A stretch of DNA of 33,240 nt from Candidatus Spyradenecus faecavium (GCA_018713405.1 DVOR01000156.1:1-33240), one strand, 5' to 3'; shown: positions 3,117 through 33,240, numbered from the stretch's first letter. Notes: generated by a model from the letters alone, not told the origin. Translations and numbers: made by a program.

Positions 3117-3118
3117 GG

Positions 3119-3844
3119 TCACTCTTGGACGGTGGCGCGCTCGATCGACCACTCCAGACCGTCGGGCGCGGAGGAGGCGAAGCCGGAGAGGCCGAAGACC
3201 AGGACGAGCGCGCAGAGGGCGAAGGAGGCCGTGAGCGTCTTCCACGAGAAGGCCCGCGCCTGCGCCGCCACCAGGAGCGCGCCGGTCAGCAGACCCTCGC
3301 CCAGGCCGATGGCCAGGTGGATGGGCTGCATCGCCGACAGGAAGTCGCCCATGTGGAGCGTGCTGATGCCCGAGAGCGCGACCTCGGCGCAGACGGCCAG
3401 GGCGCCGAGCTGCAGGGCGACCACCGAGGCGACCGTGGCCCGGAGCATCGTCGAGGCAGGGGAGCGCCGCCCGCCGCGGAAGGCGACCGCGCCGCACAGG
3501 CACCCGATGAGGCCCATGTTGAAGAGGTTCGCGCCGTAGGCCAGGAAGCCGCCGTCGTTGAAGCCCAGGCACTGGATGAGCAGGATCGCGGCCATCGTCA
3601 CGAAGGCCGCGCAGGGGCCGACGAGCGCGGTCAGGAAAACGGCGCCGACCAGGTGGCCGCTCGCGCCCGTGGCGGGGATGGCGCAGTTCATCATCTGCGC
3701 GCCGAAGACGAACGCGCCCGCGCCGAGCATGAGCGGGAGCTTTTCCTTGCCGACCTTCGTCAGCGCGGCGCCCAGCGAGGTGGAGGAGAGGCCCCACATC
3801 GTGGCCCCGACGGCCGTTGACACCAAAGCGGTTTCCATATGCAT
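3119..3844 (-). CDS. CbiM/NikM-family metal (Ni/Co) uptake membrane component with C-terminal PDGLE domain
   Basis: 241-aa polytopic membrane ORF starting MH..., the N-terminal Met-His typical of CbiM/NikM. C-terminal ...SSAPDGLEWSIE is a PDGLE motif. First gene of the lar operon. Alternative start at 3838. Confidence 0.7.
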   Translation of the reverse strand: MHMETALVSTAVGATMWGLSSTSLGAALTKVGKEKLPLMLGAGAFVFGAQMMNCAIPATGASGHLVGAVFLTALVGPCAAFVTMAAILLIQCLGFNDGGFLAYGANLFNMGLIGCLCGAVAFRGGRRSPASTMLRATVASVVALQLGALAVCAEVALSGISTLHMGDFLSAMQPIHLAIGLGEGLLTGALLVAAQARAFSWKTLTASFALCALVLVFGLSGFASSAPDGLEWSIERATVQE

Positions 3845-3939
3845 GGCAGGTTCCTTTCTATGATTGAAGAGGCCTATAGTGTAAACCTTGGAGCGCGCAC
3901 CACGTCAAGCCTTCTTTCCACGGGGAGGGGCCGCGCGTC

Positions 3940-5934
3940 TCAGCGCCGCAACAGGCGGTCGAGGAGGGGCTTGCGGAAGGGCAGGTCGAAGAAGGCCCTG
4001 GCCTCGGCCAGGTTCATGATGACGAGCTCGCGGGACTTGCGCGCCTCAAGGGTCTCGGGGAGCTCCTTCAGGATGCGGTCGGCCTCCCACGTGGCGCCGG
4101 CGTCGTACTGGAGGCGGTTGAAGCGCTCGGAGACGTCGAAGGCCGCGCGGTTGGTCTCCCAGGCGGTGCGGATGGTCTTGATGGCGTAGCTGCCGGTCAC
4201 CTTCTCGCTGAAGTAGTCGTCCAGCGTGAGGGGGCGGACGTAGCCTGGCAGGGTGGGCGTGTGCGCGGCGAAGAGGCCCACCAGGATGCGCGAGGACTCG
4301 GCCAGGATGTCCGGCGCGCTTTCGGAGGCGTCGTCCTTCATCTCCTCGAGCAGGCGCGAGACGACCTCCATCATGCGGCGCAGGTACTCGCGGTAGAGCG
4401 CCGTGCCGATCTCGCGCTGGACGGTGCGGACCACGCTGCTGCGCATGACCTCGGTGTTCGTGAGCCCCGCCTGGACGCGGCAGATGACGGTGCGGCGGAT
4501 GACCTCCGGCGCGACGGCCTTCACGTCCTCGTTCGCGCTGATGACGACGGCGGGGTAGTGCACGAGGCGCTCGGCGATGCCGAAGTCGTCGTTCTTGATG
4601 GTCTCGATGGCGTGTTGGTTGAAGCGGGTGTTGGTGAGGTCGTCCACGATGATGGGCGCGCCCTTCACCGTCCGCTTCAGCCCCTCGATGCTCGAGCGCG
4701 TGAACTCCGGCGCGGCGAGCTTGGTCTTCTGCCCGATCATCATCTTCAGCAGCGTCTCCAGGAAGCTCGTCTTCCCCGCCTTGCTCTGCCCATAGACAAG
4801 CCCGAAGACGGGATACGGCAGGAGGTTCTGGTTGTGGCGCACGGCCATGTCGCGCATCACGGCCATGAACGGCGAGCAAAAGAACCAGTTCGCGAACTCG
4901 AAGTAACGCCGCTGCATCCCCTCCACGTCGCCGTGGAACTTCTCATAGCCGTCCATGTACCGCAGGAAAAGCCCCACGTCGCGGGCCACCTCCTCCTCCG
5001 CCGGCGCGAGGTCGAGCGTCGCGTCGTTCAGGCGCACCAAGCCCTCGTCCTGGAAAATCTCAAGCTTGGGGTACTCACTCCGCACCTCCCGCTCCTTGGC
5101 CAGGTCCGCCGCCACCTGCCGCCGGATGGTCTTCACCTTCTCGGGCGCGAGGACCAGCCTCCCCTGCTTGTCCGGCTTGGGCACCGCCGGCGCGAGCCGC
5201 GTGGCCAGGTTGCGCACGTCCAGCATGAAGCGCACCTCCTCCCGCGCCTCCGCCACCGGCTCGATGACCAACGCGTTCCGTACCCGCACCGTCTCCGCGA
5301 CGGGCAACGCCTCCAGGTTCTCCCCCGCGTCCGCCGTCGCCAACGCCTCCCGCGCGATGCGGTCCGTGCTCGCCTCCTTCAGCTGCTCATAGACCCCCGC
5401 GTACCACTCATAGGCCCGCTCGCCGTCCACATAGCAGATGTTCTCCCGCTGGACGCCCCCGAACGCCGCGAACGACAGGTTGGCCGACCCCATCACCACC
5501 CGCCTGCGCCCATCCTTCGCCGCGAGCAGATAGAGCTTCTCGTGCGAGAGCGCCGCGCGCGCCACGAAGAGCCGCAGCGTCCCCGCCTCGATGCGCCCCA
5601 CCAAATCCACCTTCGCCTTGCCCGCCGTCTCCTTCAGTCGCTCCAACGTCTTGCACTGGTACGCCATCACCTCCTGCAGGGAAAAGGACATCACCTCCTC
5701 GCACCCGAAGATGACCTCAGCCTCCTCGAAGAGCCCGATCAGCCGGCACGCGAACCCGATCCCCGAGGAATACGTGATGGCCCGCAACGAATCGAACCCC
5801 TCGAACAGCTCCCGCCACGACAGCGTCTCCGCCCCCTCGAAGGCGAGCCGCACCACATCCAGCTTCCCCTCACCGCGCACGCGCTCCTCCGCGCCGCCGA
5901 ACAGCGAAAGCTCCTCCTCGTCCTGCCGCCTCAT
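3940..5934 (-). CDS. PLD-family (HKD-like) nuclease domain fused to an SF3-helicase-like P-loop NTPase; function unknown
   Basis: 664-aa ORF with GGGAGG 8 nt upstream of the ATG. N-terminal region has ...SHEKLYLLAAKDGRRRVVMGSANLS (HxK...GSxN, one copy, non-canonical spacing). C-terminal half has Walker A GQSKAGKTS, Walker B APIIVDD and a motif-C-like VVISAN. GC is visibly lower than in the flanking lar genes. Confidence 0.6.
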   Translation of the reverse strand: MRRQDEEELSLFGGAEERVRGEGKLDVVRLAFEGAETLSWRELFEGFDSLRAITYSSGIGFACRLIGLFEEAEVIFGCEEVMSFSLQEVMAYQCKTLERLKETAGKAKVDLVGRIEAGTLRLFVARAALSHEKLYLLAAKDGRRRVVMGSANLSFAAFGGVQRENICYVDGERAYEWYAGVYEQLKEASTDRIAREALATADAGENLEALPVAETVRVRNALVIEPVAEAREEVRFMLDVRNLATRLAPAVPKPDKQGRLVLAPEKVKTIRRQVAADLAKEREVRSEYPKLEIFQDEGLVRLNDATLDLAPAEEEVARDVGLFLRYMDGYEKFHGDVEGMQRRYFEFANWFFCSPFMAVMRDMAVRHNQNLLPYPVFGLVYGQSKAGKTSFLETLLKMMIGQKTKLAAPEFTRSSIEGLKRTVKGAPIIVDDLTNTRFNQHAIETIKNDDFGIAERLVHYPAVVISANEDVKAVAPEVIRRTVICRVQAGLTNTEVMRSSVVRTVQREIGTALYREYLRRMMEVVSRLLEEMKDDASESAPDILAESSRILVGLFAAHTPTLPGYVRPLTLDDYFSEKVTGSYAIKTIRTAWETNRAAFDVSERFNRLQYDAGATWEADRILKELPETLEARKSRELVIMNLAEARAFFDLPFRKPLLDRLLRR

Positions 5935-6042
5935 CCGTTCCGCCTCCCATCCTGTGTTCTCATGTCACAAGCATACCATATCCCACCCCAACCGTGCCAA
6001 AGAATCCTCCCCACGCCCCCAAACACCCCAAAGGGCCCCGGG

Positions 6043-6216
6043 CGAAACCCTAAGGGGGCCGAGGCGAAACCCTAAGGGGTTCGACCCAAAACCCTAAGGG
6101 TTTCGAGGCAAACCCTTAAGGGTTTCGGAAAAAGATGTGGACTTATGCAGAATCGGCCCCGGGGTGGGGCCGATTCGGAAGTGTGGAAGCTTGGAGGGTT
6201 GGAAGTTTGGTTGTGT
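6043..6216 (+). repeat. Composite repeat, copy 1: four palindromic units at exact 22-nt period (6043-6128), an 11-bp-stem hairpin (6150-6176), and a 5-unit 8-nt tandem array GGAAGNTT (6177-6216)
   Basis: Units CGAAACCCTAAGGGGGCCG / CGAAACCCTAAGGGGTTCG / CAAAACCCTAAGGGTTTCG / CAAACCCTTAAGGGTTTCG start at 6043, 6065, 6087 and 6109. Hairpin is GAATCGGCCCC-ggggt-GGGGCCGATTC. Array is GGAAGTGT GGAAGCTT GGAGGGTT GGAAGTTT GGTTGTGT. Near-identical to the reverse complement of 18322-18488. Confidence 0.9.
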
Positions 6217-6257
6217 CCTTGCGCGCCTTCGTGTCTTCGCGGAGAAGCGCACCGGGG

Positions 6258-7346
6258 TCAGTCGGCGGCGCGGAGGGTGAGGAGGGTGATCTCGGAGGGG
6301 TAGAGGCGGTAGGGGAAGCCGAGCCAGACGCCCGTGCCGGGGGCGACGAAGAGGCGCATCCCGTGGGGCAGGTCGTACCACCCGCGGACGAAGCCGCGGT
6401 TGTAGCGCGCGATGATGGGCGCGACGATGGGCAGCTGGCCGCCGTGCGTGTGGCCCGAGAGCTGCAGGCGCACGCCCATCGCGTCGGCCTCCGGGGCGAT
6501 GCCGGGCTTGTGCACCAGCAGCACGGGGAAGGCGCCGGCGGGCACCTGGTCCATCAGGCCGCGCAGACGGCGCTCGGCCTCGTCGGAACGCGTGAGGGAG
6601 CGGCCGTCGGGCAGGCCCAGCAGCCAGAGGGGGCCGACCTGCCGGGCGCGGCCTTCGAGCAGGGTGATGCCCAGGCGCTCGTACTCGAGCAGGTAGGCGC
6701 CGGTCTCGAAGTAATGCTCGTGGTTGCCGGAGATGAGGTATTTGCCGAGGGGGGCCTCCAGTTTCGCCAAGGGGGCGATGTCGTCGCGCCGCAGGGCGAT
6801 GCGGCCGTCCGCCTGGTCGCCGGTGAAGAGGATGAGGTCGGGCTTGGCGGCGTTCACGCGCGCCACCAGTCGCTCGCACCAGTCGCGTCCGCGCCAGCGG
6901 TCGATGTGCACGTCGGCCAGGACGGCCACGCGCAGGCCGTCGGCCTCGGCGGGCAGGCCCGGGAGGACGGCCTCGCGTTCGCGCACGGAGGGCAGGCGCT
7001 CGCCCAGATAGAGGAAGAGGAAGGCCATCGCCGCGCCCAACGCGAGCGGTGCCCACGCCGGGATCGCCACGTGGCACCACCGCAGCGCCCACCACAGGAT
7101 CGTCAGGCCCCCCGCGGAGGTCAGGAAGGCCGTCCCCCACAGCAGGACCGCCACGATCCACAGCGGCATCCCGTCGGGCGACATCACCGAGGCGCGGAAG
7201 ACGCGGTGGACGATCACCTGCTGGGCCAGCCCCACCAGGATCACCCCCACCACCGCCACCGCCCAGCGCGGCAGCCCCAGCCGGGCCACCGGCCCCAGCG
7301 TGACAAGGATCGCCAACAGCGAACAGAACAGATTGATCGGCATCAT
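6258..7346 (-). CDS. Membrane-anchored metallophosphoesterase (calcineurin-like, YkuE/YaeI-type)
   Basis: 362-aa ORF. About 4 N-terminal TM helices, then metallophosphoesterase motifs VLADVHID, FTGDQADG, ISGNHEHY, LLVHKP and SGHTHGGQ. Confidence 0.85.
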   Translation of the reverse strand: MMPINLFCSLLAILVTLGPVARLGLPRWAVAVVGVILVGLAQQVIVHRVFRASVMSPDGMPLWIVAVLLWGTAFLTSAGGLTILWWALRWCHVAIPAWAPLALGAAMAFLFLYLGERLPSVREREAVLPGLPAEADGLRVAVLADVHIDRWRGRDWCERLVARVNAAKPDLILFTGDQADGRIALRRDDIAPLAKLEAPLGKYLISGNHEHYFETGAYLLEYERLGITLLEGRARQVGPLWLLGLPDGRSLTRSDEAERRLRGLMDQVPAGAFPVLLVHKPGIAPEADAMGVRLQLSGHTHGGQLPIVAPIIARYNRGFVRGWYDLPHGMRLFVAPGTGVWLGFPYRLYPSEITLLTLRAAD

Positions 7347-7450
7347 AATGGCGCGTTATTTTAGCACACCCTCCCCGCCTCGGCGGCGGTGCGCAGGGGC
7401 GGGCGGTTTTTGCTATACTACAAGAAACGGTACACTTTGGAGACTGAAGC

Positions 7451-8410
7451 ATGAAGCGACTTTCCCTTTTGCTGTGTTGCGCGGCGGCCTGCGCGTTCGT
7501 CGGGTGCGGGGACGATTCCCCCACGGAGGCGGAGAGCCAGGAGCGGGCGAAGGCCCTCTTCGCGCAGGCCGCGGCCGCGGCGGACAACGGCGACGCCCAG
7601 GAGGCCGCGCGCCTCTACCGCGAGGTGCTGGGGCTGGACGGCGACAACGCGTCCGCCCACCTGAGCCTGGCGTTGATCGAGGACGACGCGCAGGGCGACT
7701 ATCTGGAGGCCGTCCACCACTATCAGGCCTATCTGGCGCTGCAGCCGACCGCCGAGTCGCGCGCGATGGTGGAGGAGCGCCTGGCCGCCGCGCGCGGGAA
7801 GCTGGCCGACCAGCTGGCCGGCGGCTCGGAGAAGGCGCGCGCCGCCGAGTCCGAGCGCACGCGCCTGGCCGCCCGCGTCCAGGCCCTCGAGGCCCAGGTC
7901 GGCGAGCAGGAGGCCCTCCTTGCGGAGAAGGACCGCACCATCAAGAGCCTGGAATCGCAGGTCGCCACCTGGAGGCGCACCGCCGAGGAGATGCAGACCG
8001 CCGAGAGCGAGGCCTTCCGCCTGGCCGGGCAAAAGGCCGCCGAGGACGCCGAGAGGGCGGTGCAGGAGGCGGACGAGGCGGCCTCCGACGCCGGCGTCAC
8101 GCTGGGCGAGATCGCCGCCGCCCGCGCCGAGGCCGAGCGCATGATCAACGAGGCCGACGGCGGCGTGGCCGCCCGGAACGCCGCCACCCGCAAGGCCGTC
8201 GAGGGCGTGGAGGACGCGCCGCGCCTGGGCGCCTCGCCCGTGCCGGGGCGGGACTACGTGGTGCGCCGCGGCGACACCCTTTCGAGCATCGCCCGCGAGG
8301 CCTACGGCAGCAACGCCAAGTGGCCGGTCATCCGCGAGGCCAACCGCGCGACGGTCAGCCCCGACGGGCGGATCCAGCCCGGGCAGGTGCTCATCATCCC
8401 TGAGCTGTAA
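7451..8410 (+). CDS. Lipoprotein with TPR-like region, coiled coil and C-terminal LysM peptidoglycan-binding domain
   Basis: Signal peptide and lipobox MKRLSLLLCCAAACAFVGC. C-terminal YVVRRGDTLSSIAREAYGSNAKWPVIREANRATV...PGQVLIIP is a classic LysM domain. Confidence 0.8.
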   Translation: MKRLSLLLCCAAACAFVGCGDDSPTEAESQERAKALFAQAAAAADNGDAQEAARLYREVLGLDGDNASAHLSLALIEDDAQGDYLEAVHHYQAYLALQPTAESRAMVEERLAAARGKLADQLAGGSEKARAAESERTRLAARVQALEAQVGEQEALLAEKDRTIKSLESQVATWRRTAEEMQTAESEAFRLAGQKAAEDAERAVQEADEAASDAGVTLGEIAAARAEAERMINEADGGVAARNAATRKAVEGVEDAPRLGASPVPGRDYVVRRGDTLSSIAREAYGSNAKWPVIREANRATVSPDGRIQPGQVLIIPEL

Positions 8411-8418
8411 GGCCGCCC

Positions 8419-8697
8419 ATGCGCCGCTTCCGCCGACGCCGCGACGTCTCGTTCCACCGCCCGGAGAGCGATTCTTTCCGGCTGGACACGGGCGACGTGG
8501 CGGAGGGGCGGCCCTTCTGGGCGCGGCTCTTCGGCCGCCGCGGCAGGCGCGACGTCTTCTCGCGTTACATTGCCGCGGGGGGCACGCGCGACGCGCGCGA
8601 CGAGGGGCAGGACGCCCTGGAGCGGCGGTCGTGGCGGCGTTTCTCGCTCGCGCTTGGCGCGTTGGTTCTCATCTGGATGCTGGGGGCATGGTTATGA
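8419..8697 (+). CDS. Small hypothetical membrane protein (Arg-rich N-terminus, one C-terminal TM helix)
   Basis: 92-aa ORF in the same direction as its neighbours. Its stop overlaps the nspC start as ATGA (8694-8697). C-terminal FSLALGALVLIWMLGAWL. No recognisable SD and no family recognised. Confidence 0.35.
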   Translation: MRRFRRRRDVSFHRPESDSFRLDTGDVAEGRPFWARLFGRRGRRDVFSRYIAAGGTRDARDEGQDALERRSWRRFSLALGALVLIWMLGAWL

Positions 8698-9869
8698 ACG
8701 GACTGCCCGAGACGCCCGCCTTCGTGGTGGATGTGGAGGCCCTGCGCCGCAACGCGGCCATCCTGCGCGAGGTCGCGGAGGCCTCCGGCGCGCACCTGCT
8801 GTTGGCCCTGAAGGCCTTTTCGATGCCGGTGGCCTTCCCGTACCTTTACGCTGAGGGCACCTGCGCCAGCAGCGTGCACGAGACGCTCCTGGGCGGGGAG
8901 TTCGGGGGCGAGCGGCACGCCTTCGCCGCGGCTTTCTCCGAGCGCGAGATGGCCGAGTTGCTCGACGCGGGGCTCAACCACGTCACGCTGAACTCCTTCG
9001 CGCAGCTGGCGCAGTGGCGACGCGTGGCCGCGGCCCACCCGCGCGGCGGGGAGGTCGCCGTGGGCCTGCGCATCAATCCCGAGCATTCCGAGGGGCAGGT
9101 GCCGATCTACGACCCCTGCGCGCCGCACTCCCGCCTGGGCATCCGCCGCGCCGCCTTCGCGGGGCAGGACCTCACGGGCGTCACGGGGCTGCACTGCCAC
9201 AACCTCTGCGAGCAGAACGCCGACTGCTTCGCCCGCACGCTCGAGGCCATCGAGGAGAAGTTCGGCGACCTGCTCCCGCGCATCTCGTGGTTCAACTTCG
9301 GCGGCGGGCACCACATCACCCGCGCGGACTACGACCGCGACCTGCTGGTGCGCACGTTGCGGGGCTTCCACGCGCGGTATCCGCACATCCGCTACTACCT
9401 GGAGCCCGGCGAGGCGCATGTGCTCAACGCCGGGACCTTCGTCTGCACGGTGCTGGACGTGGTGGACAACGCCGGCCCCATCGCCATCCTCGACGGCTCC
9501 GCCGCCTGCCACACGCCCGACGTCATCGAGATGCCCTACGTGCCGCGTGCCTTCCTCGACCTCGCGTGGGACGGCGCCGCGGCGCCCGGCCCCGGCGCGC
9601 TCCGCGCCGGCAAGCCCGGGGAGAAGCCCTGCGAGGTGCGCCTGGCCGGGCCCAGCTGCCTGGCGGGAGACGTCTTCGGCGACTATTCCTTCGACCGGCC
9701 CCTCGTGCCGGGCGACCGCGTGCTCTTTGAGGACATGGCCCTCTACACGATGGTCAAGACGAACACCTTCAACGGCATCCGCCTCCCCTCCCTGTGGCTG
9801 CGCCAGGGGCCCGGCGAGTTCACCCGCGTGCGCAGCTTCGGCTACGACGACTTCCGGTCGCGCCTGTGA
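8694..9869 (+). CDS. nspC: Carboxynorspermidine/carboxyspermidine decarboxylase
   Basis: From MNGLPETPAFVVDVEALRRN...: blocks LLLALKAF, GLRINPEHSEG, IYDPCAPHSRLGI, GLHCHNLCEQN, FNFGGGHHITR and YLEPGEA match the NspC-type PLP decarboxylase family. Alternative ATG at 8688. The 8631 start in the track is an unlikely extension. Confidence 0.85.
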   Translation: MNGLPETPAFVVDVEALRRNAAILREVAEASGAHLLLALKAFSMPVAFPYLYAEGTCASSVHETLLGGEFGGERHAFAAAFSEREMAELLDAGLNHVTLNSFAQLAQWRRVAAAHPRGGEVAVGLRINPEHSEGQVPIYDPCAPHSRLGIRRAAFAGQDLTGVTGLHCHNLCEQNADCFARTLEAIEEKFGDLLPRISWFNFGGGHHITRADYDRDLLVRTLRGFHARYPHIRYYLEPGEAHVLNAGTFVCTVLDVVDNAGPIAILDGSAACHTPDVIEMPYVPRAFLDLAWDGAAAPGPGALRAGKPGEKPCEVRLAGPSCLAGDVFGDYSFDRPLVPGDRVLFEDMALYTMVKTNTFNGIRLPSLWLRQGPGEFTRVRSFGYDDFRSRL

Positions 9870-9884
9870 GAGGAGGCCCCCGCC

Positions 9885-11822
9885 ATGAGAAAGATTCTTG
9901 CCCTCGCCCTTGCCCTTGCGTTCTGCCTGCCCCTCGCCGCGGAGGAGAAGGGCAAAATCGAGCTCCCCGCGCTGGAGCATGAGATCACCGGCCCCAATCA
10001 CGTCTATGGCCGCGCCCTCGACCCCGAGGACCTGGGCCAGCGCGCCGTCATCCTCTGGAACATCTCGCGCTTCGTCGAGCCCGGCTACAACCGCCTCAAG
10101 GCCGCGGAGAGCGGCGACGATGACGACGACGACAACAACAATTACCGCCGCAACAACCGCGACGACAGGGACAGGGAGGGCGGCCCGCAGGACCAGATGC
10201 GCGAGGAGAGCCGCGCCATCCAGCGCGCCTCCAAGGGCGCCGTCAAGGACGGCCGCCTGCTCGTCATCGCCGTCGACCCCCAGCCGGCCGACCCCGAGCT
10301 CCGCCGCTTCCGCACCGACGCCATCCGCGAGCTGAAGCCCTACTTCCCGGTCTACGCCATCGACGTCTCCTCGCAGTACTACGACGCCTCGGGCAAGCAC
10401 CGCGGCATGATCTCGGACATCAAGACCTTCGCCGAGGGCAACCGCCTCACCGACCTCCTCGCCGAGACGCCGGACTATCTCCCCGGGCGCATCATCACCT
10501 TCAAGACCAAGAAGATGGAGACGCTCTCCAAACGCTTCGTGGAGGGCAAGAACATCGAGCAGCCCCTCAAGCAGCTCCGCGCCGCGGCCAACGGCTCCGG
10601 CGAGAAGGCCGAGGAGGCCCAGCGCATGCTCGCCGCCGTCGAGGCCCACCTCGACGCGATGGCCGCCGACATCGACGCCGACCTCAAGGCCGCGCCCTCG
10701 CGCGCCCTCACGCGCATCGAGGTGCTCCTGAAGACCGCGCCCAGCCAAGGCGCGCGCTACGCCGGCGCCCGCCAGGCCCTCCGCGCCAACCCCGCCGTCC
10801 GCCAGCTGGCCCGCGCCCGCGAGTTCCTGCGCAAGGCCAACCACGGCGACGTCGGCCGCGGCGACACCGGGCGCCAGGCCGACGCCTTCGCCAAGGCCCT
10901 CACCCTGATGGCCAAGAGCGACAACGCCTCCATCGCCGCCGAGGCCACCGAGCTCGCCGCCGCCATGGAGCCCTATTCCGCCGCCACCCTCGCCAAGGAG
11001 CAGGCCGAGCTCCACGAACAGATCGCCGCCCGCCGCAAGGCCCGCGACGAGGCCCGCAAGGAGCGCGAGCAGGAGCGCCGCAACCGCCGCTCCGGCCGCG
11101 GCTCCTCCTCGCAGGAGGAGGACGACGACCCCGTGCAGCGCTTCGACACCGCCGGCGCCATCCTCGCCAAGTCCGCCGGCGAGGCCGCCATCGCCCCGCT
11201 CCGCGCCGAGCTCGACCGCCTGAACGACGCCACCTGCAACTACGAGCGCATCCGCGAGAACTACGCCGGCCACGCCGAGCGCCAGGGCGCGCGCAGCGAG
11301 GCCGCCAAGGCCGTCATCGCCGCCATCGACTCCTCCCGCCAGGGCTACCTCGCCGAGCTCGAGGCCATCCAGAAGGACAGCCGCCCCCTGGACCTCTATT
11401 CCACCCGGGACTGGGAGCAGATCATCGAGGTCAACTACCCCTCGCTCCAGCGCACGCCCGCCGGCTCCGAGGCCCTGAAGATGCTTCGCGACTCCGAGCT
11501 GCGCGGCATCCACGGCGTCTACGAGGACGTGCTCAAGGGCACGCCGGACCGCGAGGAGGGCGAGTCCAACGAGGACTACGCCGTCTCCACGAACCGCTAC
11601 CGCCAGACCAAGCTCAAGGCGCTCCTGAAGTACCGCGGCTCGCGCTCCAAGTATGGCCGCATGGCCGCCGCCCAGCTCGACTCCCTGGGTTACTCCAACG
11701 CCGGCATCCAGCAGAAGCTGAAGGACCTCGAGAGCCAGCTCAAGGACCTGAAGAAATCCGCCAAGGAGGCCGAGAAGGCGCGCGAGAAGGCCCAGAAGGA
11801 GGCCCGCCGCAACCGGGACTGA
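9885..11822 (+). CDS. Secreted hypothetical protein, largely coiled-coil, with an Asp/Asn run
   Basis: 645-aa ORF with GAGGAGG 8 nt upstream. Signal peptide MRKILALALALAFCLPLAAEE. Contains SGDDDDDDNNNYRRNNRDDRDRE. Long A/E/K/R-rich helical segments. No family recognised. Confidence 0.7.
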   Translation: MRKILALALALAFCLPLAAEEKGKIELPALEHEITGPNHVYGRALDPEDLGQRAVILWNISRFVEPGYNRLKAAESGDDDDDDNNNYRRNNRDDRDREGGPQDQMREESRAIQRASKGAVKDGRLLVIAVDPQPADPELRRFRTDAIRELKPYFPVYAIDVSSQYYDASGKHRGMISDIKTFAEGNRLTDLLAETPDYLPGRIITFKTKKMETLSKRFVEGKNIEQPLKQLRAAANGSGEKAEEAQRMLAAVEAHLDAMAADIDADLKAAPSRALTRIEVLLKTAPSQGARYAGARQALRANPAVRQLARAREFLRKANHGDVGRGDTGRQADAFAKALTLMAKSDNASIAAEATELAAAMEPYSAATLAKEQAELHEQIAARRKARDEARKEREQERRNRRSGRGSSSQEEDDDPVQRFDTAGAILAKSAGEAAIAPLRAELDRLNDATCNYERIRENYAGHAERQGARSEAAKAVIAAIDSSRQGYLAELEAIQKDSRPLDLYSTRDWEQIIEVNYPSLQRTPAGSEALKMLRDSELRGIHGVYEDVLKGTPDREEGESNEDYAVSTNRYRQTKLKALLKYRGSRSKYGRMAAAQLDSLGYSNAGIQQKLKDLESQLKDLKKSAKEAEKAREKAQKEARRNRD

Positions 11823-11840
11823 GCCGTCCCGCCACGGCAC

Positions 11841-11874
11841 AAAAAAGGGCCGCCCGGCAAGGGCGGCCCTTTTC
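11841..11874. terminator. Bidirectional intrinsic terminator between convergent genes
   Basis: AAAAAA-GGGCCGCCC-ggcaa-GGGCGGCCC-TTTT: a perfect 9-bp GC stem flanked by an A-tract and a T-tract. Lies between the stops at 11822 (+) and 11885 (-). Confidence 0.75.
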
Positions 11875-11884
11875 GTCGTCGGCC

Positions 11885-13450
11885 TCAGCCGACGGAGATG
11901 GATTCCTCAGGGTAGCGCACGTGGTGGGCCTGCGCGCGGGAGGCCATCATGAGCGCGAGGGAGACCGGGCCGATGCGGCCCAGGAACATCGTGAGCGAAA
12001 TGAGGAGCCGTCCGGCCTGGGAGAGGTCGCCGGTGGCGTCGAGGGTGGTGCCGACGGTGCCGAGGGCGGAGGAGACCTCGTAGAAGAGGGCGAACTCGCC
12101 GTGCTTGGCGATGAGGGCGTCCTCGGTGAAGAGGAGGAGGAAGTAGAGGAGGAAGAGGGTGGCGAGGTAGAAGAAGAGGATGACCATGGCCTCGCGGCAG
12201 ATGGCGTCGGGGATGGTGCGACGGTGGAGCTGGACGTCCGGGTTGCCGCGGATGTAGGCGCGGATGGTGAGGAGGACGACGACGAGGGTGGTCGTCTTGA
12301 TGCCGCCGGCCATGGAGCCCGGGGCGCCGCCGACGAGCATGAGGAGGACGGAGAGGACGTTGGCGGGGTGGGAGACCTCGCCCATCGGGATGGCGTTGAA
12401 GCCGGCGGTGCGGAAGAAGATGGCCTGGGCGAAGCCGGCGCAGGCCTCCTCGAAGTCCGTGTTGAAGGCGACGAGGGCGTCGCGCCACGCGCCGTCCGCC
12501 AGGGAGGCGATCAGGCCGGGGGCGGAAGGGTCGTGGACCAAGGAGCCGCGCCACTCGAGGGCGGTGAAGAGGAGCCCGCCGCCGACGGAGAGGATGAGGC
12601 TCATCCAGAGGACGACACGCGCCTGCAGGATGATGTGGCCGCGGCGGCGGAGGTCGCGCCGCCAGAAACGGTAGCGGAAGACGTTGGAGAGGACGAGGAA
12701 GCCGATGCCGCCGGCCGCGACCAGGAGCGCGAGGATGATGAGGATCGGGGCGTCGCCGCGGATGTCCAGCAGGTTGTTCGGGTGGAGGGAGAGCCCGGCG
12801 TTGCAGAAGGCCGAGACCGCGTGGAAGACCGAGAACCAGACGGCCCGGCCGAGTTCGTAGCCGTGGACGAAGTGGTAGCGGACGAAGAGGAGCGCCGCGC
12901 CGGCGACCTCGAAGGTGAGGACGTAGCGGAAGGTCTGCGAGAGCAGGCTGGCGGGGCGGCCGCTCGAGCCGAAGCTGATGGCGATCTGCCGCTCGCCGCC
13001 GAAGGGGACGCGCCCGAGCAGGATGGAGACGATGAGCGTGCCCAGGGCGACCAAGCTGATGCCGCCGAGCTGCACGCACCCCAGCAGGACGGCCTGCCCG
13101 AAGAAGGTGTACGTCTCGGGGACGGAGACCACGGCCAGCCCCGTGACGCAGGAGGCCGAGGTCGCCATGAAGAGGTTGTCGATCAGCGCCTCGCCCAGCT
13201 TGGCCCACGTGAAGGGGCGCCCCGGGGCGAGCCACGCCCAGCACCCGTCGCTCTGGGCCCACGGGGAGCAAAGCAGGAGGGTGCCCAGGGCGATGAGCGC
13301 CAGGAAGGTGACGGCGAGGGTGCGGTAGGGGTTGAACGGCTCCTGCTTGGCCGGGTCGCGGCGGCGCGCGGGCAGGGGCGTGGGCAGGTCGCGGAGGCGG
13401 TCGCGGTAGTCGCGCAGCGCCTGGCTTTGGGTGGGGGCGGCGTCGGTCAC
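11885..13450 (-). CDS. trkH: TrkH/KtrB-family potassium uptake membrane protein
   Basis: GTG start at 13450 overlaps the upstream stop as GTGA. Polytopic protein with repeated pore-loop-like segments (ATSASCVTGLAV, FHAVSAFCNAGLSL, FFRTAGFN, SSALGTVGTT). The 720-aa track ORF (to 14047) is an out-of-frame overlap with the upstream gene. Confidence 0.85.
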   Translation of the reverse strand: MTDAAPTQSQALRDYRDRLRDLPTPLPARRRDPAKQEPFNPYRTLAVTFLALIALGTLLLCSPWAQSDGCWAWLAPGRPFTWAKLGEALIDNLFMATSASCVTGLAVVSVPETYTFFGQAVLLGCVQLGGISLVALGTLIVSILLGRVPFGGERQIAISFGSSGRPASLLSQTFRYVLTFEVAGAALLFVRYHFVHGYELGRAVWFSVFHAVSAFCNAGLSLHPNNLLDIRGDAPILIILALLVAAGGIGFLVLSNVFRYRFWRRDLRRRGHIILQARVVLWMSLILSVGGGLLFTALEWRGSLVHDPSAPGLIASLADGAWRDALVAFNTDFEEACAGFAQAIFFRTAGFNAIPMGEVSHPANVLSVLLMLVGGAPGSMAGGIKTTTLVVVLLTIRAYIRGNPDVQLHRRTIPDAICREAMVILFFYLATLFLLYFLLLFTEDALIAKHGEFALFYEVSSALGTVGTTLDATGDLSQAGRLLISLTMFLGRIGPVSLALMMASRAQAHHVRYPEESISVG

Positions 13451-25035: not shown

Positions 25036-27795
<2,760 letters not shown>

Positions 27796-27828
27796 GAGAA
27801 CAGAGAACAGAAAACAGAGAACAGAACG
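27796..27828. repeat. 7-nt tandem array GAGAACA x4.5 immediately after the ABC fusion stop codon; inverted relative to 26893-26920
   Basis: GAGAACA GAGAACA GAAAACA GAGAACA GAACG. The reverse complement of CCGTTCT is AGAACGG, against AGAACAG here (6 of 7 matches per unit). Confidence 0.9.
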
Positions 27829-27893
27829 CGCGCAAACGCGCGACAGGCCCCGCAAAAGCGCAAAAGACAACGTGGCTATCCCGCTTAGGCAAA

Positions 27894-27934
27894 GCCTCAG
27901 TGGGCCTCTGTGTATGCCTCCGTGACCCCCTGTG
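27894..27934. repeat. Degenerate ~10-12-nt tandem repeat (GCCTCAGTG / GCCTCTGTG / GCCTCCGTG / CCCCTGTG)
   Basis: Read directly in the intergenic region between convergent genes. Confidence 0.6.
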
Positions 27935-28075
27935 ATCTCCAACAAGGGCACACGCTGCGGCAAAAGGAACCTCAATGGGTTCGTCGGAGTGTCCGACAAA
28001 GAATGCCTATAATTATAGCAACCTTTCCGTTCTGAGTCAAGCGCTATTTTCAGTCCTGCGTGCGCTAGCACGCCC

Positions 28076-28104
28076 TCAATCTGCAACCAATCTGCGCAAT
28101 CTGC
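28076..28104. repeat. Three copies of CAATCTGC spaced 11 and 9 nt apart
   Basis: CAATCTGCaacCAATCTGCgCAATCTGCg, read directly. Confidence 0.7.
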
Positions 28105-28173
28105 GGTTCCCTTGCGCCGCGCGGGACGCTGTGTCCCCCGACTTTCCCCGGGCAGGGGCCGGCCCGGATGGCC

Positions 28174-29559
28174 TCACGAGGCGGGGCGGAGGTCGTTCCA
28201 GATGGCACGGAAATGGGTGAGGAGGGCCTCGCGGCGGGCGGCAATCACCTCGTTTGAGAAGGAGGTCGGCAGGTCGTAGAGCAGGTCACGGATGTCGGTG
28301 GAGAGCTTGGCGCGGGCGCTCTCGCTGGCCCAGAAGTCCGGCTTGCCGAACACGCCGCGCACGGTCGCCAAGATTTGCTTGGCCACCCGCTTGGCCTTCG
28401 CCATGTCCTCCTTGGAGAGCGCGACCCCACTGCGGATCACGTCATAGACCGCCAACTCCTCCTCGCTCTCGAATCCCTCCCGCACATAACGGTTCTGCTC
28501 CTCCGTCAGGCGCTTGGAGAGCTCCAGCAATTCCAAGAAGAGCCGTTCGGTGGCCTCGGGGTCCTGGCAGGCGTTGTAGGCCTCGGCGAGCGCCTCGTAG
28601 GCCTTCAGGAAGTCGGTGCGGACGGGGTTCTTGCGCGCGAGCGCCGTCGCCTTGGCCTTGATCCGCTCCAACACCTCCTCCATCATCAGGCGCTTGTGCG
28701 AACTTCGCCGGAAGGCGTCGGCCAGGCGGCCGAAGTCGATGGCGGAGAGGTCGAGCGGCTCGGCGACGGCCTTGCCCGTGTCCGTCTCGACATGGACATA
28801 GGCGTCGACGATCCGTTGGATGGTGGCGGAGAGGTCCGTGACGTCAATCTCGCGCCGGCGGCTCTCGAAGAAGGCCGAGATGGCGCGGTGGGCCTCCCGT
28901 TCGTCGATTTCCTCCTCCGTCAGGCTCTCTCGCCCGATGAGCGCCGCGGTATGGGTGAGCATCCGCACGGCGGCGAGATAGGCCGCCTTGTTCTCGGCGC
29001 TTTGGCTGACGGCCTCAGCGGCGTCGGCCAACGCCTGCAGGCGCTCCGTGGCCGTCACCGCGCCGAAGAGCCGCTCAATCGCGAAGCCACCCTCCTCCAG
29101 GCGCCGCGTGGCCTCGGCCAACGCCTCGCGGAAGCGCGCCACGAGCGCGTCCAAATCTTGGAAGGGATCCTGCCCCGCCGCGCCCGCGACGTTCGTGTAG
29201 TCGGCCAACGCCTTGCGGAGGGCGTCGACGATGCCGATGTAGTCCACCACCAGCCCGCCGACCTTCCCGGCGTCCACGCGGTTCACGCGGGCGATGGTCT
29301 GCATCAGCGTGTGGGCCTTCAGCGGCTTGTCCAGATAGAGGCAGCTCAGCGGCTTCACGTCGAAGCCCGTCAGCCACATGGCGCAGACGAAGACCAGCCG
29401 TAACGGGTCCTCGCGGTCCTTGAAGCGCTTGTCCAGCCGCTTCTGCTCCATGAGGTCCCGATGCGGGCGGATGTCCAGCCCATGCTTCTCGAAGACGGTC
29501 TCTTCGCCCTGCGCCTTGCTCACCACCACGGCCATCTCGGTGTCTTCCATGGAAGCCAT
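28174..29559 (-). pseudogene. hsdR: Type I restriction enzyme R subunit, C-terminal ~460-aa remnant (5'-truncated)
   Basis: ...TEMAVVVSKAQGEETVFEKHGLDIRPHRDLMEQKRLDKRFKDREDPLRLVFVCAMWLTGFDVKPLSCLYLDKPLKAHTLMQTIARVNRV... is the helicase motif VI region plus the C-terminal helical domain of HsdR. The nuclease, Walker A and DEAH regions are absent. High-GC sequence ends near 29560 where the low-GC cassette begins. The first ~23 codons of the track ORF are junction sequence. Confidence 0.8.
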
Positions 29560-29662
29560 CTCTGACGAAATCCGACATATGTGATACGCTAAGTTGCACG
29601 AAACGCTGAGCGACAAAATAAGCGGCAAAAGGAGTTGCGATTAAGATGTTTTAGTATCCCCC

Positions 29663-31006
29663 TTACAGACTCTTATTCTCTCCGTCATTGGGTTCAAACA
29701 ACGTCAATTGGCACGCGATTGGCGGCGTGGCACGCTGAGAGCTTCCACCCCCGTTCGCCTCATCTTCCATCGCTTCCAGAAGACGTTTTCCCATGCGCGT
29801 AATGAGGGGGACGACAAGTGCATTCCCCATCGCAAAGTAACGGAACTTTTCAGGCACGCCAGGTACATCTGTCCATCCATCAGGGAAGCCGTTCAAGCGT
29901 TCACATTCCACGGGTGTGAGGATACGTAAACGTCCGGTTTGTGCGTCAGTGATAACGTGGGATGATCGGTTGACAGATCCCTCACTGGTGAGCATCGTCC
30001 TCGCAGGAAGTTCAAGCGCATCTGGAAATCGTACAGGGCCTTCCGAGAAGAAGTAGGGGTCTCCGTTTGGCTTGACGCGGGGGATACGCTTTGCGCCCTT
30101 TAAGAATTTCCATTTATCCAGAGCTCCATTGAGGAAGAAACGGGCCGGAACTTCATCTGTCAATCTGATTTTCCCAAGCGGCGTTGGAGGTTCGTGGACA
30201 GGGGTTGTCTCAAAGGAAAGGACTTTCCCATCAGACATCACGCCAGCTGAATAAAACGGAGCAGCGAACGAGTCTGAGACATTTGCCAAATCTGGGAATT
30301 CCACCGGACCGACAGAGGTCTGCGTGTATTTACGTTCATCTGCCATATCCCCCTCAATAGGGAAAGCCTTCGCGAAGAAGCCATCGTGCAAAATAGTGTC
30401 TTTCAGCGCATAGTCCGCATCTTCCTTAATGTGATTCGCCAAGGCTTCACCTAAGGCTGTATCTTTTCGATAAGCGAAAATAAACGTCCGACGGCGTCGT
30501 TGAGCGTTTCCATAATCCGCAGCATTGACGACTCGCCATTCCACAGCATAGCCTTGGTCAAGCAGGCAACGCAGAATGACTCCAAAATCTCGGCCTCTTT
30601 GTTTTGTCGGGGACTTGAGTAGCCGGTCGACATTTTCCAATAGTACGTATTGGGGATGATGTTCCGTAATGACATCATTAATCGACCACCACAAGACCCC
30701 TTTTTTGCCTTCCATCCCTTGCGCACCGGTTCGCGCTACGGAATAATCCTGACAGGGGAAACCGCCGACAAGTAAGTCGTGCTCTGGGATTTCATTTTTG
30801 ACAAGGGCAATGTCTTGGTTTACGTGGTTCGGTCCAGCCCCAAAGTGATGAGTATAACAGGTGAACGCGTGTTGAACTGTTTTCCCAGGTTCCCACTGGT
30901 TTGCCCAAACTGTCTTGAATCGTTCAGAAACTTGTTCAAGGCCAAGACGGAATCCGCCGACCCCTGCGAACAATTCCACCACGCGAATATCTTTGTTTTC
31001 TCTCAT
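29663..31006 (-). CDS. DNA (cytosine-5)-methyltransferase, probable partner of the Sau3AI-like enzyme
   Basis: 447-aa ORF with C5-MTase motifs I VVELFAGVGGFRLG, IV GGFPCQDYSVA, VI LLENVDRL, VIII QRRRRTFIFAY and X AMGNALVVPL. ATGA overlap with the upstream endonuclease gene (31003-31006). Confidence 0.92.
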   Translation of the reverse strand: MRENKDIRVVELFAGVGGFRLGLEQVSERFKTVWANQWEPGKTVQHAFTCYTHHFGAGPNHVNQDIALVKNEIPEHDLLVGGFPCQDYSVARTGAQGMEGKKGVLWWSINDVITEHHPQYVLLENVDRLLKSPTKQRGRDFGVILRCLLDQGYAVEWRVVNAADYGNAQRRRRTFIFAYRKDTALGEALANHIKEDADYALKDTILHDGFFAKAFPIEGDMADERKYTQTSVGPVEFPDLANVSDSFAAPFYSAGVMSDGKVLSFETTPVHEPPTPLGKIRLTDEVPARFFLNGALDKWKFLKGAKRIPRVKPNGDPYFFSEGPVRFPDALELPARTMLTSEGSVNRSSHVITDAQTGRLRILTPVECERLNGFPDGWTDVPGVPEKFRYFAMGNALVVPLITRMGKRLLEAMEDEANGGGSSQRATPPIACQLTLFEPNDGENKSL

Positions 31007-32394
31007 TGCCTTGCCCCAATCACCTGTTCGATGTATGGCTTGTTAAACCAGAAGCCTTGTTTGGTGATAGTGCGACCATCCGGCAACAAATCTGTGTCCA
31101 ACCCGTCATGTCCATGTGGGCGTACATGGGCAATACGATTGTCTTTGGATTTGGGCAAGTCATTCTTAGTCCCGTTTCCTTTCTTCCAAAGTCTCACGCC
31201 ACGGCGAATGGTTTGACGCGTTTGCTCCCATACTTTACTGACTTCATTCAAATCAGACTCCGGCATATGCCAGAAAACTGTTCGCCAAAGCCGAATTTCT
31301 CCGTCCTTTCCTTCTTTAAAAACCACAAAGAAGAACTTTCGAGTTCGCAACAATTCTCCGAATCTTGATTCTTCCCATGATGGTTCTTCCAGCAATTCCG
31401 CGATTCGGAAGGCGGGAAAGGAAATGTGCTCCTTCATTCGACCGTTCTTATTGACGAAAACAGTTTTTGCATAAATCCCAGCCTTTTGGAACTCTTCTGT
31501 ATCCGTCAATGGTCCCTTGATACCATAAATTGCAGAAACAATTTGAGCACGAACGTTTTTGGCTTTTCCACTAAGACCAAAATGAGACTCAAGCGCCTGT
31601 TGTGTCCACCCAATGTAGGGACGAATCATATCTTGGATATAATCCTCAAACCGACTCTTCAAGGCAGAGGCGTCACGAATAAGTTTCTCATCCGGGGCCT
31701 TCCCAAATGCTTGATTGATAACACGTGTCATATACGTTGCCTTTAACGCATAAGCTCTTTGCATGGCAAGAATCGGTGAATATGGTTGGCGACGTAAAGT
31801 GGCGTTGTTTGGGCCTTTGGGGCAAGCCGAAAGATAGGTTGTTTCTGCTTCAGACAACAGGTGTGCCTCCCCCGCACGAATTTTCCCGACAATCCACGCC
31901 CAATCCTGCTCGATGATCTTTAAATCTTCATATGAAAACTGATGCAAAAATGCGGCTGCAATACGAAAGTCCGCACGTTGTACGTCTTTCTTGTACTCAT
32001 ATGGCAGAATCAGCATTGTTTCGCATTTCTTCCAAAACGAACTATCAAAGAAGTTGGCCTTCTCTGCCTCCTCCATATAGTCAATGATATTACAGACCAA
32101 CCTCTCTTTTGCCCGAATCTTCTTATCCTTTCTCCGGACAAACGGTGTTACCTTCAGTTCTACTTTTGCCTCTGGAAAGTCATATTCCGCACGACTGTTT
32201 GGCGAAAAACCAAACCAACCTTCTTCTACGACTTGTCCTAGACTTCCTTTGTTGCCAGTGTGCGACAATCGTCCGTGGATATCCAGTTCCCCAAACGTCT
32301 TACCTACCACGCCTTTCGCGCGCGCCAACACTTCTTCTTTTGTCTTGTACTGTCCATTCATGACACTCATTATACCGCAATCAATAAGAATCAT
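31003..32394 (-). CDS. Sau3AI/MutH-family type II restriction endonuclease (predicted GATC specificity by family)
   Basis: 463-aa ORF. ...VGKTFGELD...DFPEAKVELKVTPF...AKERLVCNIIDY...IIEQDWAWIVGKIRAGEAHLLSEAETTYLSACPKGPNNATLRRQPYSPILAMQRAYALKATYMT...FFFVVF...HVRPHG... is colinear with my recollection of Sau3AI (two MutH-like halves). The start could instead be M9 (32370) or M12 (32361). Confidence 0.85.
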   Translation of the reverse strand: MILIDCGIMSVMNGQYKTKEEVLARAKGVVGKTFGELDIHGRLSHTGNKGSLGQVVEEGWFGFSPNSRAEYDFPEAKVELKVTPFVRRKDKKIRAKERLVCNIIDYMEEAEKANFFDSSFWKKCETMLILPYEYKKDVQRADFRIAAAFLHQFSYEDLKIIEQDWAWIVGKIRAGEAHLLSEAETTYLSACPKGPNNATLRRQPYSPILAMQRAYALKATYMTRVINQAFGKAPDEKLIRDASALKSRFEDYIQDMIRPYIGWTQQALESHFGLSGKAKNVRAQIVSAIYGIKGPLTDTEEFQKAGIYAKTVFVNKNGRMKEHISFPAFRIAELLEEPSWEESRFGELLRTRKFFFVVFKEGKDGEIRLWRTVFWHMPESDLNEVSKVWEQTRQTIRRGVRLWKKGNGTKNDLPKSKDNRIAHVRPHGHDGLDTDLLPDGRTITKQGFWFNKPYIEQVIGARQ

Positions 32395-32972
32395 GCGACA
32401 CTTTCAAGATAACGTCTCGCTTGTAAGGCGTAAAAGTGCTCCTGCGGTGCGAATTTCTGAAGAAAGTATTCGTAGATGCGGCCGAAGACGTCGCCGCCGA
32501 TGGTGTCGAGGACGGGGTCGTTGAAGGTGCGCACCAGGTCGGCCAGGATGGCCGGCGGCAGCTCGCCGTACTGCTTGGGGAGGACGCCCGCGAGATCGGG
32601 GGACTCGGCCTCGATGGCGGCCATGGCGGCGTTCAGCGCCTCGGCCAGGTTTTCGTCTCCCGGCAGGGCCGCCAAACGGTCGTAGCGCGCGGCCTCGGGG
32701 AGCCAGAGCACACCGTTGCCTGTGTAGTCCGCCTTTTCGATGTCGTCGATGTCGCGGGAGCGGCTGTTGGGATTATTCTTTCTCTTCTGCTCCAACTTCT
32801 CCGTCTGCCGGCGGAAGCGTCCCCACGCGTAGCGCAGGAAGATGAGCCCCATCACGGGCATGCAATATTGGCTCGACGTCAGCTTGGAGTTCGAGCGCAA
32901 CGCGTCCGCCGACTCCCAAAGCCGCGCCTCCAGCGCCCTCAGCCGCTCATTCCACGCCATCGTCTCTGCCAT
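32391..32972 (-). pseudogene. hsdM: Type I R-M methyltransferase subunit, N-terminal ~180-aa stub (3'-truncated)
   Basis: From MAETMAWNERLRALEARLWESADALRSNSKLTSSQYCMPVMGLIFLRYAWGRF...GDVFGRIYEYFLQKFA (HsdM_N-type region and the start of the catalytic domain). It then reads into low-GC sequence to a stop at 32391. The AdoMet-binding and NPPF/Y motifs are missing. No hsdS is present. Confidence 0.8.
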
Positions 32973-33141
32973 CGTCGTTCCTTTCCGGTCTTTCCCATAG
33001 GATACCACAACCGCCCACCCACCGTCAGCGGGGCGTTCGGAGGCTTGGCGGCGCCTCCTTTTCCGCGAAGACGCAAAGAGTGCGGGTGCTCCGGCGGGGA
33101 CGGTCCCCGCCGTCCACCCGCCCTTCACGACTTACGGGAAC

Positions 33142-33168
33142 GTCCTATTGGTCCTATTGGTCCTACCG
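33142..33168. repeat. 9-nt tandem repeat GTCCTATTG GTCCTATTG GTCCTACCG
   Basis: Read directly, upstream of the hsdM stub. Flanked by GC hairpins (GGCGGGGAcgGTCCCCGCC about 33103-33121; GCAGGGGGagcttCCCCCTGC about 33207-33227). Confidence 0.8.
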
Positions 33169-33240
33169 TGTCGCCTGGAGGCATGTCCGCAGGACGTGCC
33201 GCGGGTGCAGGGGGAGCTTCCCCCTGCCGGGGTTCAAGGG

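Follow-up and report, generated by a model that had tools for sequence, protein, structure and literature searches.

Replacement of the core of a type I hsd operon by a Sau3AI-like restriction-modification cassette in an uncultured Kiritimatiellota bacterium

The window analyzed here is a 33,240-nucleotide stretch that makes up the whole of contig C119 of assembly G000 (Candidatus Spyradenecus faecavium; GCA_018713405.1, DVOR01000156.1:1-33240). It belongs to an uncultured, gut-type Kiritimatiellota bacterium with a guanine-plus-cytosine (GC) content of 68%, whose assembly comprises 1.78 Mb in 254 contigs and is 87% complete. On the minus strand of the window, a type II restriction-modification (R-M) cassette encoding a Sau3AI-like endonuclease and a C5 cytosine methyltransferase lies between two remnants of a type I hsdM-hsdS-hsdR operon. 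We consider it likely that a foreign type II cassette replaced the core of the resident type I operon and has since acted as an allele of hsd. The initial annotation of this region had proposed that a horizontally acquired R-M system overwrote another, and that proposal is now upheld by mapped breakpoints, by base composition, by the rarity of the cassette in the phylum, and by junctions that recur in other assemblies.

The elements follow one another as first described: an HsdM N-terminal stub (32972-32446), a low-GC cassette of 2,895 bp (32445-29551), and an HsdR C-terminal stub (29550-28174). Breakpoints were mapped against four intact hsd operons from the same genus (G004, G007, G016, and G023), in which orthologues of both stubs (71 to 83% amino acid [aa] identity) lie ~6 kb apart on one strand. 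The orthologous HsdM, HsdS, and HsdR are 612, 375, and 1026 aa long. HsdM carries the Pfam domains HsdM_N and N6_Mtase (residues 158-445), HsdS carries two Methylase_S domains, and HsdR combines HSDR_N, SWI2_SNF2/ResIII, T1R_D3, and T1RH-like_C. In none of these relatives did an hsdM or hsdR as short as that of the window stand as a full-length gene. Homology between the window and all four operons ran from 32972 to 32446 and again from 29550 to 28174, with sharp junctions. In the coordinates of the G007 locus (L022), the breakpoints fall at 6839 and 11022, and 4,182 bp (6840-11021) have given way to the 2,895-bp cassette. The replaced segment takes in hsdM codons ~174-612, the whole of hsdS, and hsdR codons 1-568.

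At the hsdM end, identity to the four intact genes is 77 to 82% and stops at 32446/32445. HsdM-derived residues occupy positions 1 to ~175 of the stub's open reading frame (ORF), with L022 HsdM residues 1-173 matched by tblastn; the last 18 codons are non-hsd sequence, and their TGA stop overlaps an ATG at 32394. The stub retains HsdM_N (66.9 bits), its N6_Mtase match is limited to profile positions 4-21 (the first ~18 residues), and the PADLOC MTase_I profile was matched at positions 6-170 of 653. The HsdR stub is an open frame equivalent to residues 569-1026 of the 1026-aa orthologue, consisting of the second RecA-like domain's last half and the C-terminal helical domain (Pfam T1R_D3-like, positions 86-156 of 158, plus T1RH-like_C; TIGR00348 hsdR, positions 548-671 of 674; PADLOC REase_I, positions 609-999 of 1029). 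Its DNA identity to intact hsdR is 79 to 85% and sets in exactly at 29550. When the assembly was searched by tblastn with L022 HsdR residues 567-1026, the stub was recovered at 82.6%. The HsdM catalytic domain, hsdS, and the HsdR nuclease and first RecA-like domain are missing, as had been stated earlier; of the second RecA-like domain, roughly the N-terminal half has gone as well.

None of the missing hsd parts, HsdS included, was found by tblastn elsewhere in the 87%-complete assembly, and on this ground their rearrangement to another site was rejected; no second HsdM or HsdS was found in the assembly. With its methyltransferase catalytic domain, specificity subunit, nuclease, and motor all lost, the type I system is dead. 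Elsewhere in G000 there is a second, distant HsdR-like gene (C124:4076-5935; 24% aa identity, ~987-aa frame), along with an N6_Mtase domain in a 1,039-aa frame (C176:2107-2700) that is possibly part of a type IIG enzyme.

Base composition sets the cassette apart from its surroundings. Outside the two junctions GC content is 0.64-0.72; precisely within them it drops to 0.42-0.52. Among 2,209 windows of its size across the assembly (mean 0.685, standard deviation 0.038), the cassette has the lowest GC content, 0.479 (z = -5.48). GC at third codon positions (GC3) is 0.46 in the endonuclease gene and 0.49 in the methyltransferase gene, compared to 0.88 and 0.92 in the stubs. This windowed analysis confirms the abrupt compositional shifts that had been noticed at both junctions. 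The next-lowest islands in the assembly (C202:~27000-30400 and C192:~2500-9400, at 0.52-0.57) are further candidates for horizontally acquired DNA.

Both cassette genes, first described as a Sau3AI-like endonuclease and a C5 methyltransferase with overlapping stop and start, proved to be complete. The endonuclease matches NCBIfam NF040973 with 492.6 bits (equivalog cut-off, 300) over profile positions 1-474 of 475, making it a full-length member, and Pfam MutH covers its residues 61-164. It aligns through both of its MutH-like domains, the N-terminal catalytic one and the C-terminal effector one, with full-length Sau3AI (PDB 4pxg, residues 23-479; E = 1.2e-71), as well as with the Sau3AI C-terminal domain structures 2reu and 7xm0, and its D..E-x-K catalytic motif reads DFPEAKVELK opposite DMAEAGVALK in Sau3AI. 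Alternative in-frame starts lie at 32370 and 32394; 32370 or 32361 is likelier than 32394. The methyltransferase has a complete catalytic domain (PF00145, 210 bits, profile positions 1-322 of 324) and also matches TIGR00675 (231.7 bits) and the PADLOC MTase_II profile PDLC03329 (538 bits, positions 3-402 of 407). Motifs I, IV, VI, VIII, and X appear in its translation as FAGVGG, GFPCQ, ENV, QRRRR, and GNA, and its ATG overlaps the endonuclease TGA as ATGA. Ratios of nonsynonymous to synonymous substitution rates (dN/dS) of 0.05-0.12 indicate that both genes are under purifying selection. Given two complete, translationally coupled genes with intact motifs and this signature of selection, the type II system is probably active. 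Its predicted target is GATC, and the cassette contains 3 GATC sites against 10.9 expected, a weak observation regarding specificity. Across G000, observed-to-expected ratios of tetranucleotide palindromes were 0.62 for GATC, 0.13 for CTAG, 0.54 for GTAC, and 2.2 for TATA; the moderate genome-wide depletion of GATC cannot be attributed to the cassette.

A Sau3AI-family endonuclease was found in this genome alone, both among the 28 species genomes of the genus and among 401 genomes (184 genera) sampled from the phylum. Typical gut Firmicutes-type homologues are ~50-53% identical. A rival explanation is that a low-GC segment of another organism was joined to Kiritimatiellota hsd fragments during assembly or binning. 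The metagenome-assembled genome is fragmented (254 contigs, 87% complete), the region lies at a contig end, and the composition of the cassette is radically different. Nevertheless, two chimeric joins would have been needed within one contig, and both joins recur base for base, in the same gene order, in four other assemblies: L026 (98.9% identity over 5.2 kb), L027 (99.3%), L037 (96.0%), and L038 (93.9%). Since these stem from other samples and other assemblers and represent strains 1-6% diverged from the window, their identical junctions mean that the arrangement is not a chimera. A sister form of the cassette recurs in nine further contigs, and an artefact can be regarded as effectively refuted.

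That sister form (L028, L036, and ten more contigs) carries a cassette 88% identical to that of the window, again set against an hsdR stub. Its left edge abuts sequence 146 bp upstream of the hsdM start (L022 6176), and hsdM is wholly gone; at L028 base 8220, homology to the region upstream of hsdM stops and homology to the cassette of another contig, L032, starts. At the other end, a third gene, ORF236, is intact after the methyltransferase gene, and the hsdR stub starts 149 bp further 5' (L022 10873). The cassette family was also found outside the hsd context on high-GC contigs of the same clade, namely beside AAA_21 and RelB genes (L032, 84% identity) and, with an ORF236 homologue, beside alaS (L033, 72% identity). 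Intact ORF236 encodes ~236 aa and lies 3' of the methyltransferase gene in two cassette lineages (L028 11004-11714 and L033 6253-6966), between which its dN/dS is 0.28. It has no Pfam or PADLOC match, and a word-seeded search gave no homologue beyond its own cluster; it may be an accessory of the R-M cassette.

The window retains a remnant of ORF236. When compared with L028 10930-11960, positions 29644-29578 match L028 11430-11496 at 82% (blastn E = 4.8e-13), and weaker similarity continues to ~29551. Because this remnant has been kept, the window cassette derives from a three-gene form that originally comprised the endonuclease, the methyltransferase, and ORF236. The part of ORF236 kept in the window resembles a hydrophobic segment. 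Relative to L028, the window lacks two segments: 441 bp from the 5' part of ORF236, and ~383 bp that take in the ORF236 3' end and 149 bp of hsdR. In L028 the ends of the 441-bp deletion, which is later than the founding event, share a short CTT(TT) repeat. The hsdR-side junction of the window may thus be either a secondary deletion or the founding junction, lying inside ORF236.

An unrelated cassette occupies the same operon in a sister species, G008. At this locus (L049, G008:C57 821-5769), hsdM and hsdS are absent and the first 180 codons of hsdR have been replaced; the hsdR orthologue, truncated at codon 181, continues as an open frame (3178-5769) with an HpaII-family R-M pair directly upstream in divergent orientation. 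Together with the Sau3AI-like cassette, this case shows that type II cassettes have overwritten the operon at least twice in the genus. A more far-reaching reading is that the window form, the L028 form, and the G008 cassette are all separate insertions, with the operon or its upstream edge serving as a preferred landing site for type II cassettes. Such recurrent targeting would fit with the independent replacement in G008 by a pair of unrelated type, with the differing breakpoints of the two Sau3AI-like forms (L022 6839/11022 versus 6176/10873), and with an L028 stub that is overall closer to the intact G004 gene (88%) than to the window stub (86%). It would also fit with the two cassette alleles, which are 12% apart and show no amelioration, as if they had diverged outside these hosts. 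However, the ORF236 remnant places the window cassette within the same three-gene form, and the later deletions that it has demonstrably undergone can also explain the differing breakpoints. The identity ranking of the stubs is weak because recombination has scrambled their phylogeny, and targeting is not strict, since the same cassette family occurs in non-hsd contexts (L032 and L033). We regard recurrent targeting as less likely than not.

The two Sau3AI-like forms themselves could be explained either by a common ancestor (hsdM stub, endonuclease, methyltransferase, ORF236, and long hsdR stub) followed by deletions, or by two insertions. We considered amelioration as a means of dating the residence of the cassette and set it aside as ambiguous, there being no excess of AT-to-GC over GC-to-AT substitutions on either cassette branch (64 versus 71 for the window and 52 versus 69 for L028). 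This could reflect either divergence outside these hosts or a GC pressure that is ineffective on the cassette.

Divergence among carriers is sharply mosaic. When the window is set beside L037, the hsdM stub and the methyltransferase gene show 1 difference each, the endonuclease gene shows 157, and the hsdR stub shows 40, which lie in patches. All 157 endonuclease differences fall within 31717-31010, at ~22 per 100 bp, and are bounded by identical sequence. The block is ~22% diverged in L037 and L038, with the flanking 1.4 kb and the whole methyltransferase gene identical. Given that it is only 72-87% identical to every other sampled cassette allele, it comes from an unsampled one. L037 and L038 thus document domain-level allele swapping within a type II endonuclease.

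The stubs tell a similar story. In nine L028-type contigs the junction is identical (GAATTTC, then TGGCGGCG) and the cassettes differ by 0-3 mismatches per 3.5 kb. These contigs carry three hsdR-tail haplotypes that diverge either 8 bp or ~170 bp past that junction, to ~10%, so that a cassette which is in essence clonal is found against diverged hsdR backgrounds. The L036 stub is 99-100% identical to the intact hsdR of G004 over ~300 bp and 87-95% identical elsewhere. A gene tree of stubs and intact hsdR genes, considered as a means of counting insertions, was set aside, as identities per 150 bp revealed a patchwork of recombination by which a single tree would mislead. This mosaic divergence means that homologous recombination takes place between the stubs and other hsd alleles, intact ones among them. 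Read most simply, the stub-cassette-stub unit would spread by this route as an allele of the hsd locus.

Could the stubs be more than relics or homology arms? One reading is that they, and notably the HsdR C-terminal fragment, are kept because they are expressed and useful, and that they might interfere with other type I complexes as a decoy or dominant-negative, or else serve the new system as its partner. Three in-frame ATGs listed earlier for the hsdR stub (29559, 29550, and 29535) were all confirmed in the sequence, one of them exactly at the hsdR junction, and translation of the stub is possible. The frame is open in all six stub haplotypes as well as in the longer G008 fragment. Changes private to stubs, at 45 synonymous to 13 nonsynonymous (singletons, 27 to 4), are no more relaxed than those of intact genes (66 to 52). 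Pairwise dN/dS (omega) is 0.14-0.24 among stubs and, for the G008 fragment, 0.24-0.33, as in intact pairs. In L028, a hairpin with U-run lies 3' of the methyltransferase stop (-11.3 kcal/mol, z = -2.1); the window has lost it (z = +0.2), and all three overwritten forms (window, L028, and G008) keep the hsdR 3' end.

These signals are nevertheless indecisive, because the cassettes are nearly clonal within each form, leaving little time for decay, and because stub diversity arrives in tracts. Some of these tracts equal intact alleles, and a low dN/dS can be inherited from working genes; we therefore did not accept it as proof of selection on the stub, the divergent tracts being possibly imported from intact alleles. 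Moreover, the window stub begins in the middle of a RecA-like domain and is unlikely to be a folding unit, and the remnants were found with the hsdR 3' end as query, which biases the search toward its retention. On balance, we think it quite improbable that the stubs are retained for a function. If they were, a free HsdR fragment, carrying the domain by which HsdR binds to the methyltransferase core, could disarm other type I complexes, and such a decoy might help the new type II cassette, or incoming DNA, to establish.

Returning to the replacement of the operon core, we looked at the cassette edges for signs of how it moves. All cassette copies are alignable from about 2 nucleotides upstream of a TTGAAA at 32407-32402, within a leader that also contains TATAAT (32374-32369) and is common to copies in four genomic contexts. 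A consensus scan called no sigma-70 promoter at this left edge, and a promoter role for the leader is only conjecture; the conserved TATAAT overlaps possible start codons. No direct or inverted repeats pairing the cassette edges were found beyond chance-level matches, nor was a long target duplication. The initial annotation had reported no integrase, transposase, or obvious direct repeats, and this holds for the cassette edges and for positions 28174-33240, the contig ending 268 bp upstream of the hsdM stub. No integrase or transposase gene adjoins the cassette in L028, L032, L033, or L036 either. The accompanying suggestion of cassette mobility without a dedicated recombinase stands as far as homologous recombination through the stubs is concerned; for the direction of transfer, we can only infer that the cassette entered new backgrounds, as opposed to hsdR tracts entering carriers.

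From these observations, the following course of events can be proposed. A low-GC, three-gene type II cassette would have entered a 68%-GC Kiritimatiellota lineage, where illegitimate recombination, which we infer as the founding mechanism, would have replaced the operon core and left hsdM codons ~1-175 and hsdR codons 569-1026. In the window form, ORF236 would since have been mostly deleted. The stub-cassette-stub unit would then have behaved as an hsd allele, its stubs recombining homologously with other hsd alleles in the population, and the cassette would have passed into diverged backgrounds, probably overwriting intact type I operons, without a recombinase of its own.

Several points weigh against this account. 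The check for a donor lineage proposed at the outset gave no close candidate: outside the clade, relatives from metagenomes reached at most 67% aa identity, and the best phage and plasmid matches stood at 51% and 42%, respectively. As to the founding junctions, the one on the hsdR side of the window may be secondary, and on the hsdM side the ~36 bp at 32445-32410 are left over between the breakpoint and the alignable cassette (a 26-mer from them had no match among Joint Genome Institute [JGI] metagenome contigs). With no AT-to-GC amelioration between them, the window and L028 forms could stem from one insertion or from two. The mosaic pattern proves recombination and not its direction. Finally, the "same locus" is the same operon and not the same chromosomal site, as the neighborhoods are not syntenic. 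Coordinates of the features discussed are collected in Table 1.

Table 1. Features of the overwritten operon in the window and of the loci compared with it
Feature	Location	Strand	Basis or remarks
HsdM N-terminal stub ORF, 193 aa	32391..32972	-	Pfam, PADLOC, DNA homology
Junction filler, ~36 bp	32410..32445	-	Between hsdM breakpoint and start of alignability among cassette copies
Conserved cassette leader	32362..32409	-	Alignment of window, L028, L032, L033; left end of cassette
Sau3AI-family type II endonuclease, 452 aa from MNGQ start	31003..32361	-	NF040973, Pfam MutH, Sau3AI structures
Recombinant block in endonuclease gene, C-terminal (effector-domain) half	31010..31717	-	Mismatch maps
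C5 cytosine DNA methyltransferase, 447 aa	29663..31006	-	PF00145, TIGR00675, PADLOC MTase_II
ORF236 remnant (third cassette gene)	29551..29644	-	blastn to L028, sequence comparison
HsdR C-terminal stub, 458 codons from ATG 29550	28174..29550	-	Pfam, PADLOC, DNA homology, tblastn
Intact operon in L022 (G007)	hsdM 6322-8160, hsdS 8189-9316, hsdR 9318-12398		
Operon-bracketing repeats, L023	5522-5733 / 12264-12475		212 bp, 93%
Operon-bracketing repeats, L022	4150-4458 / 13057-13400		344 bp, 87%
Operon-bracketing repeats, L024	4811-5007 / 11524-11720		199 bp, 86%
G008 HpaII-family endonuclease	821-1927	-	GC of pair 0.55-0.60 vs 0.66-0.70
G008 C5 methyltransferase	1890-3098	-	GC of pair as above

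The type I operon is itself unevenly distributed. No two genomes share synteny in its outer neighborhoods, and it is present in only about 6 of the 28 species of the genus; given both observations, the operon is best regarded as an accessory island. Direct repeats of 199-344 bp flank it in three of the four intact genomes and contain dispersed arrays of 8-nucleotide units with 46-74 hits each in G000. The hsd island as a whole may be excised or inserted by way of these repeats. They do not represent one mobile-element terminus, since each genome has different ones, composed of dispersed mini-repeats. A further element of ~60 bp, at 28051-28119 in the window and 55 bp 3' of the hsdR stop, has copies of 84-95% identity near other hsd loci (L022 4105-4166, L023 3870-3932, L028 6060-6113, and L036 5914-5973); this intergenic repeat is dispersed and gives no evidence of synteny.

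The cassette resembles the Sau3AI system of Staphylococcus aureus in its two-domain, MutH-like endonuclease (~450-490 aa) with a D..E-x-K motif, in a C5 cytosine methyltransferase partner in the same orientation, and in its predicted GATC target. It differs in that its endonuclease is clearly divergent from 4pxg, with the nearest relatives outside the clade ~50-67% identical, and in that it lies within a dead type I operon on a Kiritimatiellota chromosome of 68% GC, originally with an orphan third gene, ORF236. The locus also invites comparison with the immigration control region of Escherichia coli. O'Neill, Chen, and Murray reportedly concluded in 1997 that type I hsd genes do not resist replacement by recombination, and Sibley and Raleigh are said to have described in 2004 alternative restriction cassettes occupying that region. 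In both settings, type I genes are readily exchanged through flanking homology, and alternative cassettes sit at one locus in related strains. However, the homology arms in E. coli are conserved neighboring genes, whereas those of the window are remnants of the overwritten operon, and the chromosomal neighborhood of the window operon is not conserved.

Allelic R-M systems of the substitution type, incomers of foreign composition, and insertions of R-M units into other R-M genes have been described (Furuta, Abe, and Kobayashi 2010, PMC2853133). As in those cases, the place of one R-M system is taken in related genomes by one of a different type, GC3 and codon bias mark the incomer as horizontally acquired, no mobility gene is needed, and target genes are left as fragments. 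The window fits the substitution type in that four same-genus genomes have an intact operon between the stub-forming sequences, with homology confined to the operon. It differs in that the substitution is internal to an operon and leaves both ends as stubs, that the stubs recombine with intact alleles at the population level, and that the host phylum is uncultured. The long target duplication of the R-M insertions of Nobusato, Furuta, and Kobayashi is not seen around the cassette. Essentially, then, this is ordinary defense-gene turnover; its particular features are an intraoperon replacement with two stubs, recombination through those stubs, and recurrence with an unrelated cassette.

In a barely studied, uncultured phylum, the locus offers a cleanly resolved natural overwriting of one R-M system by another. 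The unaltered operon, two forms derived from it, and a second, independent overwriting that involved an unrelated cassette can all be set side by side. The locus also cautions that short "HsdM" and "HsdR" annotations flanking a type II pair are remnants and do not denote a working system. These observations support the view that type I operons are soft targets offering no resistance to replacement, and that what is left of an overwritten operon can provide the homology arms by which a recombinase-less cassette moves through a recombining population. In this lineage, the replacement predicts a methylome switch, in which a type I N6-methyladenine (m6A) motif is lost and 5-methylcytosine (m5C) at GATC is gained, and such a switch would alter which DNA and phages can enter.

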